From: Candidatus Obscuribacteraceae bacterium | GTDB lineage: Bacteria; Cyanobacteriota; Vampirovibrionia; Obscuribacterales; Obscuribacteraceae | Direction: 5' to 3' | Length of the DNA stretch: 64,000 bases | Assembly (NCBI GenBank): GCA_044226015.1 | Contig: JBGAHS010000010.1 | Coordinates: 320,001-384,000, forward strand | Shown here: positions 50,536 to 57,240 of the stretch, in pieces | Position numbering within the stretch: the stretch's first letter is position 1 | How the letters are laid out: the number at the start of each line of letters is the position of its first letter | Notes under the pieces: model-generated | Databases searched by the model: none | The model's input: the letters and a program-made list of their open reading frames with translations, nothing else | Told to the model about the DNA's origin: nothing | Position numbers and translations under genes: made by a program

Positions 50536-50752
50536 TCCGACTTTTGTCGCAGTGAATAACTCGAAGACTGAAGTGGAAGGTGGGGACGGTAGCCTCATTT
50601 CCTCAGTTGCGAACTTAGTGACATGAGGACGGAAAATCCCAAAATTAATTGAGCTAGATTTCAACAGCTCGGTTAGAATGGCAAATATTAATTTCGTTTG
50701 ATCTATTCTGGCTTAGGGCACTAAGGGTCTAGATAAGCCTTGGAGGCGAGTG

Positions 50753-51457
50753 ATGTTGTTGAAGAAAAGTGCGGTTCTGCTCCTTCTAGCCCTGGGAATT
50801 GGTGCTCCTGCATCGTTCTCTCAAGACCAGAAGCCGTTCGAGCTCGGAGTAGAGCAGAGAAACTTTCTTCCCGGCGAGCAACCTGCTGTTCCTCAGTATG
50901 GCAAGCCGATGATGATCGGACCGCCGCCAGTGACTGATACACATAAGACTCCGCCGCCCAAGAAAGAAAAGAAAATTAAAGCTTCTATTGAACAGACTGC
51001 TCCTCCTCCTCCGCTGCAACGAATGCAGCCACAGCCTCAGCAACAGATGATGCAACCGGTGCAGGGAGTCTTGCCGCCACAATTTCTTGGACGCTGGCAG
51101 GTGCTGGGTAATCGCAGCTCAGTAGAGGCGCAACCGCAATATCAATCTGGAATGGATAGCATCTTTTCGATGACCACATCTAATATGTGGAACATTCAAG
51201 GCACTCCAGAGCAAGGTTACATGCTGAGCACCGACACAGGTGTGTCGACACCACTGATGGTGCAGACGCAAGGTAATACAGCAATTCTTCGCTATCAGCA
51301 TCCCATACGAAACACCGTTGCACAAGAAGCGCTGGTTATGCAGCTTGGCCCGAATGGCGCCCAATTTGAGGGGCTGGAACGCATCAGCATTGTAAAACAG
51401 GGTGAGCCTGGACCTCGAGCCAAGGTGACTTACAAACTTATTGGTCGCAGGCAATAA
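50753..51457 (+). CDS. Secreted hypothetical protein (paralog 1)
   Basis: GGAGG SD, signal peptide, Pro-rich linker, C-terminal domain shared with the next gene. Confidence 0.82.
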   Translation: MLLKKSAVLLLLALGIGAPASFSQDQKPFELGVEQRNFLPGEQPAVPQYGKPMMIGPPPVTDTHKTPPPKKEKKIKASIEQTAPPPPLQRMQPQPQQQMMQPVQGVLPPQFLGRWQVLGNRSSVEAQPQYQSGMDSIFSMTTSNMWNIQGTPEQGYMLSTDTGVSTPLMVQTQGNTAILRYQHPIRNTVAQEALVMQLGPNGAQFEGLERISIVKQGEPGPRAKVTYKLIGRRQ

Positions 51458-51516
51458 AATCCGTCTATAACTTTTTAAGGCTAACTAAAAGCATGCCGCT
51501 CTGCAAAGGTGAATCC

Positions 51517-52224
51517 ATGAATCATGCTCGTCTTCCCCTGGTGTTGGCGATGCTTTCAAGTACGTTGGTTCATTCTCAGGTCTCTTTCGCCGAAGATGGA
51601 ACCTTGCTCAAAGGTGGTGTTAAGGATGGTGCTTACATTTCGGCACCAGCGGTTCAGCCCTATGGTACACCGCAGTATGCCAAGCCACAGTTTGTAGGTC
51701 CGCCGAAAATTCAAAAGGCAGCAATACAGACCTCTGTAACTAAACCAAAACCGCCTTTGCCGAAGCCAACACCTAAGCCGATTGTGAAACCTGTCGTGAG
51801 ACCGGCACCGGTCAGAATGGCTCCGAAAGAGGACGTTCTTCCGCCTCAGTTCTTGGGCAGATGGAGCGTTAGCGGACAACGTTCGAGCATGGAAGGTCAG
51901 CCTCAATATCAAAGCGCGCTGGGTGGAATTTTTGCAGCCACCACCAGCAATACCTGGAACGTAACTGGTGATCCAGACCAGGGTTACCTGCTGACGACAG
52001 ATTCTGGTGTGTCAACACCGCTAAGCGTTCACATGGAAAACGCCCAGACTGCAGTTCTTCAGTACAAGCATCCAATAAATAAAACGCTGGCGCTTGAAGC
52101 AGTAGTTTTGCAATTAAACCCGGGCGGAACTAGTTTCAGCGGCTTAGAGCGCATCTCTATTGTGAAACCTGGCGAGCCTGCACCGCGTGCGAAGGTTACT
52201 TACAAATTGTTCGGACGAAAATAA
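51517..52224 (+). CDS. Secreted hypothetical protein (paralog 2)
   Basis: Shares VLPPQFLGRW, GVSTPL, GLERISIVK, PRAKVTYKL with paralog 1. Confidence 0.82.
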   Translation: MNHARLPLVLAMLSSTLVHSQVSFAEDGTLLKGGVKDGAYISAPAVQPYGTPQYAKPQFVGPPKIQKAAIQTSVTKPKPPLPKPTPKPIVKPVVRPAPVRMAPKEDVLPPQFLGRWSVSGQRSSMEGQPQYQSALGGIFAATTSNTWNVTGDPDQGYLLTTDSGVSTPLSVHMENAQTAVLQYKHPINKTLALEAVVLQLNPGGTSFSGLERISIVKPGEPAPRAKVTYKLFGRK

Positions 52225-54044: not shown

Positions 54045-54109
54045 GTAATTAAAAAAACGTCCTGCGGTATCATTTAGTCCGTACAGGTCTGACTTGGAGT
54101 TTGGTACAG

Positions 54110-54502
54110 ATGGACGGGACAGAACATTTCGACTTAGCAGCTACTATGGACGCCATCACACAGGGGATTGTCTCGATTGTCTGCCGTATAGGGTTCGAAG
54201 CTGCGGTTCATGGGCTCGTACTTGCTGGGGTGGTCCTGGCTGCATCGCTTTTCTATGCAACCAGGAAGCATCGCTTCGCCAAACCGCTGGTCACAGTGGC
54301 TAAGAAGCTCTCTATCTTCTGCGCTATCATTGCTATTCCGGGAGTAATAAGCCTGGTCAGCACCGGAAAGTTGCCGCCGATCAATTCCTTACAGCTTTCT
54401 TCTGTAGGCTTGATCGGATTCTGGACTCTCGTGACTCTGCACCTTTGCATGGAAGAAATCAATTTCCAGTTGATTCAATCTCGTGGAAGTCAGAAAGGCT
54501 AG
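54110..54502 (+). CDS. Small integral membrane protein (about 3 TM)
   Basis: Three hydrophobic segments; GGAG upstream of ATG 54110 (ORF track starts at 54101). Confidence 0.7.
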   Translation: MDGTEHFDLAATMDAITQGIVSIVCRIGFEAAVHGLVLAGVVLAASLFYATRKHRFAKPLVTVAKKLSIFCAIIAIPGVISLVSTGKLPPINSLQLSSVGLIGFWTLVTLHLCMEEINFQLIQSRGSQKG

Positions 54503-54723
54503 AAGTTCCTCCGGGAAGTACTGTCCTGCTGTTCTGTGGGGATCTTGTCGACTAAATTCTGTTAGCTTTCTTCCAAGATTTTTTTTCGCTGTTGGAAAAC
54601 GCTGGATTCCACTTTTGTTGCTAGATGCTCCTGTCTGGCTTGGCTCTTTGCTGTTTTCTTGGTCTATTTGTGGGGTACTTTTTCCAATCGCGTTGTTGGA
54701 ATGCATAGCGATATCTTGAAATC

Positions 54724-54958
54724 ATTGCAGCCCCCCCAGCAGCAAGTAAACAAATTGACCGAGCCCCAACCCCCCCCTCAAAGGCTCGTCAATGGAAGGA
54801 AGGAGACAACATCCCCCCCACGTTGTCGCCTCAAAAAAAGAAAGCAGCTACCGCTGTCCGGACTAGTAAGCCACCCCGAAAGTTGAGCCCCCCCTCTCCA
54901 ACTCGGATTTACTAATTGTTCGGCTACCTGAGTCCAGGCGGTAGCTGTTTTTTTTTTT
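54724..54958 (+). ncRNA. Candidate novel structured ncRNA with four poly-C hairpin loops
   Basis: Four stems capped by C7/C8 loops; 12-bp closing stem followed by T11; G-U pairs in the long stem favour the + strand. Confidence 0.55.
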
Positions 54959-55079: not shown

Positions 55080-56495
55080 ATGGATATGGGCATGATCAAA
55101 AATTTGAAACTGGCAAAAATTCCATTTGTAGGAATGTCGTTTTTTGCAACTACTATTCTTTCGATGCCGTTCGCTCATGGTGAGTCCACCGACAGCATTC
55201 ACTGCTATGTCACAAGCAATGACAAAAAGTGCACAGAACAGGCTGCGTTGAACTTCAAATCTGCTGACGCAAATGGTGATGTTATCAGCATAGGAAACGA
55301 AAAGAAGCAAGAAATACTCGGCTTCGGTGGTGCGTTTACTGATGCTGCTTGTTACAACTTCAAAGATTTGTCTTCCGAATCGCGAAGCAAACTTTTCAAC
55401 AATCTCTTTTCTCCATCGGAATTGGGGCTCAACTTTTGTCGTATCTGTGTAGGCGCGAGCGACTATGCGACCAAAGCCTATAGTTATGATGAAGGTGAAC
55501 CAGATCCTGAGATGAAGCGCTTTTCCATAGCACATGATACTCAGTGGATTTTGCCGGCGCTAAAGGAAGCGCGCAAGGTGAACCCAGATATCTTTTTGCT
55601 TGCGTCACCCTGGAGCCCGCCAGGATGGATGAAACCTAACAACTCGATGTTGGGTGGCAACATACAAAGAAAGAGCTTTGAACCTTATTCCAAGTACTTC
55701 ATTCGTTTTCTGAAGGCTTACGAAGAGGCAGGCGTGCCAGTTAATGCTGTCACTGTGCAAAATGAAGTTGATACGGATCAAGATAGTCGCATGCCAGCAT
55801 GTTTGTGGCCGCAAGAGTACGAAATGGATTTTGTCAGACAGTTTCTTGGACCTTCCATTCAAAAAGAAAATCTCAAAACTAAGGTCTGGATTATCGACCA
55901 CAACTATAATCTCTGGGGCAGAGCAATTGACGAGCTTGAAGGCGACGACATGCTCAAGTACGTCGGTGGAATTGCATGGCATGGATACGTGGGTTCGCCT
56001 ACTCTGATGACCAGAGTTCACAATGCGTTTCCTCAGGTTGATATGTACTGGACTGAAGGCGGACCTGACGTCACTCAGCCAGACTACAAAACAGATTGGG
56101 TTAAGTGGTCAACTTCGTTCTCTGGAATTTTGAATAACTGGTGCCGCGGCATTATCGCGTGGAATCTGGCTCTGGATGAAGAGGGTAAGCCAAACATAGG
56201 ACCATTCCCTTGTGGTGGCATGGTTACAATCAACTCCAAAACAAAGGATATTTCCTACAGCGGACAGTATTGGGCGATGTCTCAATATTCTAGATTTATC
56301 AAGCGTGGTGCACATGTGCTCAACAGTGAAACCAATGCGAAGGATTTGTCGGTTATGGCTGCAGAAAATCCTGATGGAAAGACTGTACTTGTTGCCACCA
56401 ATGGCGGTGGCTCACGAAAAGTGTCTCTGAAGGTGAAAGGCAAAGTAGCTGAATTGCAGCTAGATCCTAATTCCGTTTCTACCTTCGTTTGGTAA
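55080..56495 (+). CDS. Glycoside hydrolase family 30 (glucosylceramidase/beta-1,6-glucanase-like)
   Basis: GFGGAFTDAA, ASPWSPPGWMK, TVQNE (acid/base), WTEG (nucleophile), WNLALD. Confidence 0.92.
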   Translation: MDMGMIKNLKLAKIPFVGMSFFATTILSMPFAHGESTDSIHCYVTSNDKKCTEQAALNFKSADANGDVISIGNEKKQEILGFGGAFTDAACYNFKDLSSESRSKLFNNLFSPSELGLNFCRICVGASDYATKAYSYDEGEPDPEMKRFSIAHDTQWILPALKEARKVNPDIFLLASPWSPPGWMKPNNSMLGGNIQRKSFEPYSKYFIRFLKAYEEAGVPVNAVTVQNEVDTDQDSRMPACLWPQEYEMDFVRQFLGPSIQKENLKTKVWIIDHNYNLWGRAIDELEGDDMLKYVGGIAWHGYVGSPTLMTRVHNAFPQVDMYWTEGGPDVTQPDYKTDWVKWSTSFSGILNNWCRGIIAWNLALDEEGKPNIGPFPCGGMVTINSKTKDISYSGQYWAMSQYSRFIKRGAHVLNSETNAKDLSVMAAENPDGKTVLVATNGGGSRKVSLKVKGKVAELQLDPNSVSTFVW

Positions 56496-56532
56496 CTCGT
56501 GTACAATTGAAGTGAGATGCCGAGGATGCCTT

Positions 56533-57240
56533 ATGAATCTTAAATTGCTCAGCTTTTCAGTTCTGATGGCTGGCTTGCTTGCGCAAACATCAGTCTATGC
56601 GCAATATGGACAGTCTGGCTATTACGGCAATTCCACCAACCGATACCCTAACGTGTTGCCGACCAGCGGTGTGATGGGACCAAACATGCAGACCTACTCT
56701 CAGTATGGTCGAAACCCAGCCACTGGCGGCTATGGCGGATATGGTGGCTATTATGGTCAATATCCTTATGCAAATCAGCCTGGCTACGGCTACTACACTG
56801 CCAGCCCGTACCTGAATTCTTATCCTGCACTTGGTTCTCCCGTTCCTGTTAACGGTGGAATGTTCAGGTTCAACATCGGTGGCTTCTCTGGTTCTTACTG
56901 GAGAGCGCCTTCCGGTTACTACTATCCATGGGGTGCCGGCGCTGTATTTGCTACTCCGGCACCAGTGATTATCGTTAATAATGGAAGCTCTCAGGTGGCG
57001 CAGCCTCCTGTTGGTGATTTATTCAAGGACATGAGTTCCTATATAGAGGATCAAAACACCAAGAAGAAGCTTAAGCCCGACGATTACCAGCATCTGGCGC
57101 GTCGACTCCGTGACCTGCAGGGAATGGAAGCTTCGATGCGGACAAGGAACAATGGTTCTCTTGACCCTGATGATGAGGAAACTCTTCGTAAGGATGCGGC
57201 TATGTTGTCTGGGGATATAAGTAGAAGAATCCTACCCTAG
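56533..57240 (+). CDS. Secreted Gly/Tyr-rich hypothetical protein
   Basis: GAGGA SD, signal peptide, GGYGGYGGYYG region, helical C-terminal domain. Confidence 0.75.
   Translation: MNLKLLSFSVLMAGLLAQTSVYAQYGQSGYYGNSTNRYPNVLPTSGVMGPNMQTYSQYGRNPATGGYGGYGGYYGQYPYANQPGYGYYTASPYLNSYPALGSPVPVNGGMFRFNIGGFSGSYWRAPSGYYYPWGAGAVFATPAPVIIVNNGSSQVAQPPVGDLFKDMSSYIEDQNTKKKLKPDDYQHLARRLRDLQGMEASMRTRNNGSLDPDDEETLRKDAAMLSGDISRRILP

Follow-up and report, generated by a model that had tools for sequence, protein, structure and literature searches.

Comparative sequence analysis indicates that the intergenic stretch 54724..54958 (+ strand) of the window, the 64,000-nt DNA analysed here, truly encodes a folded small RNA and is conserved among uncultured cyanobacterial relatives that do not photosynthesise. 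By analogy with 6C, cuckoo and sX13 RNAs, it would be a stand-alone trans-acting sRNA whose C loops pair with G-rich ribosome-binding sites, a reading to which we assign a probability of about 0.6. The predicted RNA is ~235 nt long, taking its start as 6 nt past the -10 element and its end as the U tract.

Four C runs lie inside 165 nt of this stretch: C7 at 54731-37, C8 at 54770-77, C7 at 54813-19 and C7 at 54888-94. A previous sequence-only reading of the same DNA had listed these runs together with TATCTT at 54712-17 and T11 at 54948-58, and all are present at those positions. Runs of at least 7 nt number 35 for C and 43 for G in the 8.19-Mb host genome, which is 92% complete. Its sole cluster of four such C runs is the candidate locus, which is single-copy; the Poisson chance of a four-run cluster anywhere in the genome is ~2e-9. 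Upstream lies a gene for a 133-aa hydrophobic protein of unknown family (54101..54502, +), which has no Pfam family and only Atlas matches below 0.9. This gene is present in 94/104 family genomes and served as the synteny anchor. Downstream is a GH30 glycoside hydrolase gene (55080..56495, +; Pfam PF02055), a neighbour without a fixed partnership; the gene 3' of the sRNA varies among homologous loci. By eye, the 133-aa gene often adjoins what looks like a homologue of the Gly/Tyr/Pro-rich gene found at 56512-57240 of the window. Positions 50750-51457 and 51493-52224 encode adjoining look-alike Pro-rich secreted-type proteins, the second without a Pfam family. No start codon or reading frame is common to all 12 sRNA homologues, and a small peptide product was dropped for that reason. 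Rfam scanning, proposed earlier as a check of novelty, gave only chance-level matches for the sRNA stretch and the 11 homologous loci and no family match.

The + strand has an MFE fold of −75.8 kcal/mol (z −6.08) that is equalled by 0/200 shuffles, while 6/200 equal the fold of the − strand (z −2.03). The earlier proposal of a + strand structured ncRNA of ~235 nt outside known families is upheld by these values and the Rfam result. The MFE fold also reproduces the stems proposed with it, with C runs in their loops; predicted mean unpaired probabilities of runs 1-4 are 0.86, 1.0, 1.0 and 0.98. In hairpin 1 (54725..54745, +) the first C of the C7 run is paired in the predicted fold and six are left free. 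Its stem is kept among homologues and its C loop is optional: in G002, G007 and L101 a 4-nt loop takes its place. Hairpin 2 (54754..54793, +) presents the C8 run in the loop CCAACCCCCCCCUCAAA, and homologues retain this C loop on differing stems. Hairpin 3 (54801..54831, +), recognised from the fold and from homologue comparison, presents the next C7 run in the loop AUCCCCCCCAC between purine-rich linkers; purine runs of at least 9 nt occur in 7/12 homologues.

The 12 RNAs, ~160-245 nt long, were compared with ends set by hand from the -10 element and the 3' rod. Within them 30/32 runs of at least five C fall inside MFE hairpin loops, compared with a loop fraction of 0.08-0.25 when the C runs were held and the remainder shuffled. 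The + strand out-folds the − strand in 12/12, with G003 nearly tied. The host's C-run stems are not mutual copies, and between homologues the stems beneath C loops differ in sequence with pairing retained. The claim that different stems underlie the same loop is therefore sound, and the homologue search advised along with it recovered relatives that keep their C loops on changed, still-pairing stems. C loops number four in four homologues, three in three, two in four and one in one, so the "exactly four" of the sequence-only reading does not hold across the family. Run length varies through indels (C4-C11), and the flanks vary too. Loop sequences are C5-C8, often CUCCCCC or ACCCCCUC, and one of four DNA sequencing runs searched, X9, contains a further sRNA variant with indels in its C runs.

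Sequence conservation is highest in the 3' rod (54844..54948, +), which consists of a 12-13-bp basal helix (54844-55 / 54937-48), a GGACU/AGUCC helix, an asymmetric 3' bulge and an apical loop with the fourth C run. In the basal helix 98% of cells are paired, 8/13 pairs are invariant and one has a two-sided change. Over the whole rod 90.9% of cells pair, with two-sided change in 2/31 pairs, and covariation is no better than chance (199/500 shuffles as high). Formal covariation in the rod is weak; the rod is conserved by sequence, not by covariation. The rod's 5' CCGA strand has two candidate 3' partners, the proximal one predicted to be favoured in 6/7 and the distal one in G003, and the basal helix is identical in both predicted conformers. 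At 54872-54930 the similar 3' strands CUCGGAUUUACUA and UUCGGCUACCUGA are both able to pair with one 5' rod strand. These twin strands may be a two-register switch or a relic of duplication.

The U11 tract at 54948..54958 (+) is the likely 3' end, and U-rich tails follow the rod in six genus members. A consensus scanner called neither promoter nor 3' terminator at the locus because the promoter lacks a -35 resembling TTGACA and ~80 nt lie between the arms of the closing stem. In G003 a separate terminator-like hairpin past the sRNA (L014:1630-1660) itself bears a CCCCC loop.

The twelve homologues, host included, come from five genera of one Obscuribacterales-type family and from one metagenome contig (L101). 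BLAST detected the element in 5/7 other genomes of the genus and gave no match above chance in 33 further genomes outside it, and the records with the rod pattern are Ca. Obscuribacterales/Obscuribacteraceae. The DNA behind the anchor gene was read at 70 of 94 loci. Eleven carry the exact promoter box TTCCAAY-N6-RTTGGAA, C-loop hairpins and the rod; in the remaining 59 the best box match has at least 3 mismatches. Where the sRNA is missing, the usual downstream gene is still in place. A covariance model of the rod, applied to 104 family genomes with 35 candidates scored per genome (so that weak matches can be lost), recovered six genus members only. G084 matched the model at E 2e-4. G077, G078, G081 and G082 did not match it significantly (E 0.08-0.84 or no match) and were assigned as homologues by synteny or position, box and architecture.

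BLAST of 107 genomes with the G082 homologue returned itself and one short match over the last 37 query bases only. Pattern scans gave 5 matches in genome contigs, 2 in metagenome contigs and 0 in viral contigs, and metagenome match L102, with neither box nor C loops, was dropped as chance. Searching 107 genomes for box, -10 and CCCC yielded four box sites besides the known loci, and a triple-C5 pattern had three matches in five genomes without the locus, none of them sRNA-like in the stretch viewed. Carriers group together in trees built from the upstream protein and from CpaB, with 3 label changes vs ~9 when shuffled. All 11 carriers fall on one starred 14-row branch of the upstream-protein tree, together with G001, G087 and G088, which have no sRNA. 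This pattern is consistent with one gain plus losses, and is no proof of it. G005 and G085 are uninformative on sRNA presence, the anchor gene being absent in their incomplete assemblies.

All 12 homologues share one promoter order: TTCCAAT-N5-TGTTGGAA, 10 nt, TAnnnT, 6 nt, then the first hairpin or a leader. In the window the box, an imperfect palindrome straddling the -35 position, occupies 54682..54701 (+), and the -10 element TATCTT follows exactly 10 nt past it at 54712..54717 (+). The sequence-only reading had correctly placed this conserved -10 and had overlooked the palindromic box and its regulon. Half-sites astride -35 suggest a dimeric activator; CtrA sites provide a parallel for this geometry. 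TTCCAA-N8-TTGGAA has 15 copies in the host genome, mostly intergenic, vs 0-2 at spacers 5-7 and 9-11. At 16 other host box sites, comprising exact and near matches oriented by box asymmetry, xAnnnT stands at +10 in 12, vs 0-2 at nine other offsets. The box pattern occurs in 46/104 family genomes, in up to 18 copies, with 0-1 for control patterns. A literature search for the motif returned nothing fitting.

Because the 15 genomic box copies lie ahead of Flp/Tad pilus, kinase, FecR-domain and LRV genes, the sRNA is placed by its promoter sequence in an undescribed regulon defined by TTCCAAT-N5-TGTTGGAA-N10-TAnnnT. Behind host boxes (sites include C1:1240830, C11:524002, C7:690670, C7:691791, C10:211875 and C11:1375690) are a TPR gene ahead of Tad/TadE genes, GH5, genes for FecR-domain and LRV-repeat proteins and a Ser/Thr kinase gene. 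A short ORF behind one box is putatively Flp-pilin-like by reading of its sequence, and a group-2-type sigma-70 gene stands behind a symmetric box copy with 11-nt spacing. FecR, LRV, Tad, kinase and response-regulator genes recur behind boxes in five other genomes, for which 30/42 box sites were fetched and 32 proteins scanned. Two strong host box promoters, C4:228105 (−) and C10:208678 (−), are followed by no called gene. The former precedes a short acidic ORF that has an SD and the latter a structured stretch, possibly a small protein and a further sRNA, respectively. Since the fixed box-to--10 spacing resembles that of PafBC-type promoters, a PafBC/SOS-type regulon was weighed, and it was dropped, as no repair genes lie directly behind boxes.

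If the sRNA acts by pairing, a dimeric regulator at TTCCAAT-N5-TGTTGGAA would let a sigma-70-type polymerase fire at the -10, switching on the sRNA together with the Flp/Tad pilus, surface and signalling regulon. By analogy, the exposed C loops would act as seeds, forming G-C pairs with G-rich ribosome-binding sites; this would block 30S loading on the paired mRNAs and make many mRNAs less stable or less well translated. Having several loops would provide redundancy or two-point contact, and the long 3' helix with its U tract would terminate and protect the RNA.

In the host, which employs SD sites (16S tail CACCUCCUUU), GGGGG occurs in the SD zone of 56/3395 ATG starts vs 12 in control windows; sites for pairing therefore exist. 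A site of G5 or longer was counted at 93/4436 refined ATG starts, a partly circular figure. Forty of these 93 genes were annotated and include pilus, kinase, c-di-GMP and translation genes, with no single theme. G-rich sites do not track sRNA presence. The excess of GGGGG-N5-9-ATG over a reversed control is alike in genomes without the sRNA (e.g. 1.5-3.1) and with it (1.4-2.4). The cpaB G5 site is family-wide, being kept in 12/15 genomes in which the sRNA is absent from the locus or unassembled and in 5/8 carriers, and lost in 3/8 carriers; that of pilT is kept in 4/10 carriers. A conserved leader or promoter element, GTTAATAGTAnnTGGTTAATCTTT, precedes cpaB (host C11:228188) in all 23 orthologue loci, usually followed by the ribosome-binding site AAGGGGGA. 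Target prediction by loop duplex energy, which is partly circular because starts were picked by SD strength, gave a long list with no functional ranking, and the box-regulon genes were mostly mid-table for predicted loop pairing. The strong sequence conservation of the rod is not accounted for by mRNA pairing. Pairing is placed before a protein sponge by analogy.

CsrB and RsmZ are GGA-loop sponges that titrate CsrA, and in RsaE C-rich UCCC loops pair with G-rich leaders. CsrB/RsmY/RsmZ resemble the sRNA in having a repeated loop motif and a regulator-driven promoter, but their loops are GGA and their partner is CsrA/RsmA, whereas the loops here are C-rich and CsrA (PF02599) was not found in the 92% complete host genome. 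Taken strictly, the CsrB/RsmZ parallel drawn in the sequence-only reading is not supported. RNAIII and RsaE, with UCCC loops, and H. pylori HPnc5490 likewise use C-rich seeds for G-rich leaders, according to the cited passages (PMC3771888, PMC4615179). RNAIII encodes a peptide as well, whereas the sRNA has no conserved ORF, and there is no sequence or family match.

The relevant sections on 6C RNA of Actinobacteria (RF01066; PMC6486639, PMC5014011) describe hairpin loops with at least 6 C and a stand-alone gene under a transcription-factor site, as here, and a model of loop pairing to G-rich ribosome-binding sites; five G-C pairs are needed and action is chaperone-independent (PMC6486639). 6C RNA is ~80 nt long with two loops, as described there, whereas the sRNA has 235 nt, four loops (1-4 in homologues) and a long 3' rod, belongs to another phylum (Obscuribacterales/Obscuribacteraceae) and has a box regulon that is not one of DNA repair. 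RF01066 had 0 matches at E<=10 in the host genome, a search of low sensitivity in that its control reached cut-off in 0/14 genomes. Cuckoo RNAs (RSs0680/CcsR, ar14), as far as the cited text describes them, are likewise modular, with 2-4 adjacent hairpins, one loop motif and variable stems, and pairing through the C-rich loops is described (PMC4615179). Their loop motif is CCUCCUCCC, whereas loops here are pure C runs or CUCCCCC/ACCCCCUC; a single G003 loop holds CUCCUCCC, and CCUCCUCCC is not in each loop. Cuckoo hairpins are limited in that account to 24-50 nt, in contrast to the 105-nt rod of a single-copy RNA with no Rfam match. The cited part of the work on Xanthomonas sX13 (PMC3771888) reports the same C-loop design, with apical C-rich loops on three stems (C4-C5), acting by pairing and repressing mRNAs with G-rich motifs near the start, one of them from a pilus gene. 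That RNA has 115 nt and lies at the polA locus of a gammaproteobacterium, whereas the sRNA has longer C runs, a rod and no Rfam match. The 6S model (RF00013) had its best matches on host C6 and C12 and none at the sRNA locus, where the small SRP RNA model (RF00169) also had no match. As in C-loop trans-acting sRNAs, predicted single-stranded C-rich loops are retained on changing stems. Judged by these comparisons, the sRNA is not a member of 6C, cuckoo, CsrB, 6S or SRP.

It seems rather unlikely that the sRNA is a multivalent decoy, switched by the box regulator, whose C loops and conserved rod would sequester a pyrimidine-binding protein. Such a decoy would fit the like loops on unlike stems, their variable number and the dedicated upstream box, comparable to the promoters of Rsm RNAs, which are driven by GacA. 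The host encodes five RRM proteins, two KhpA/B-type KH proteins and a weak Hfq-like gene (C7:624641-624775, 87-aa frame, 25.6 bits vs a cut-off of 27), and target tests for pairing gave nothing specific. However, the absence of a CsrA match, the freely varying run lengths and flanks and the fact that characterised C-loop RNAs, in the cited parts of the papers, all act or are thought to act by pairing speak against it. A literature search on poly-C specificity of cyanobacterial Rbp proteins found nothing relevant. Rho, the best-known poly-C binder, was dropped as the titrated protein because the one profile used, Rho_N, had no match in 25/25 genomes. A broader picture, which likewise seems rather unlikely, makes the sRNA the post-transcriptional arm of an undescribed Obscuribacterales lifestyle switch. 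A single regulator would switch on the sRNA along with signalling, surface and Flp/Tad pilus genes. The sRNA would then either decoy an RRM/KH-type protein with its poly-C loops, as a multivalent sponge of which we know no bacterial example, or have two functions, the conserved two-register rod binding a protein and controlling access to the last C loop.

The sRNA might instead be a cis-acting leader that attenuates or switches the downstream gene, its rod serving as terminator or antiterminator. The promoter, the structured RNA, the U tract and a gene on the same strand 121 nt further on would suit this, and the alternative 3' partners of the CCGA strand could serve such a leader. It is nevertheless improbable: the basal helix is unchanged between conformers, so that no antiterminator forms, Rfam scans gave no riboswitch or T-box match, and the downstream gene both differs between homologous loci and persists where the sRNA is missing. 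About as improbable is a housekeeping or protein-scaffold RNA (6S-like, SRP-like or an RNase substrate) in which the rod does the work and the C loops are accessory. The conservation of the rod speaks for it, but an SRP RNA lies elsewhere, above cut-off (host C1:499970, single match), as does a full-length 6S candidate (host C6:800550, E 0.04), and the sRNA is confined to one branch and missing from most loci read. The 6S-like stretch at C6:800550-800755 (−), at 23.2 bits under the Rfam cut-off, lies between genes, is closed by a stem, follows a -10-like site and is likely a divergent 6S RNA. The sequence-only reading had also raised a minus-strand G-quadruplex from the four G7-8 runs on that strand of the window. 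Such an RNA, or a DNA-level G4/i-motif element, is scarcely credible: C-loop number varies, with only 1-3 in 8/12 homologues, which argues against the idea, spacers between runs are 32, 35 and 68 nt, and the promoter signature directs the + strand in 12/12 while the − strand folds worse.

A literature search, covering few subscription papers, found no sRNA paper for Obscuribacterales, none on Melainabacteria RNA motifs and nothing about this particular RNA; supplementary motif lists independent of Rfam may include it. The RNA apparently founds an sRNA family not yet described, which has a promoter motif and a regulon of its own. In a lineage whose sRNA literature came up empty in this search it would be a new family, and it would add one more independent origin to those of the C-loop design in Actinobacteria, Alpha- and Gammaproteobacteria and Firmicutes. 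Twelve natural variants ease the design of loop and stem tests. The sharp promoter motif and its regulon, with Flp/Tad pili, kinases and a nearby group-2-type sigma factor, would provide a handle on surface-attachment regulation in the non-photosynthetic sisters of cyanobacteria.
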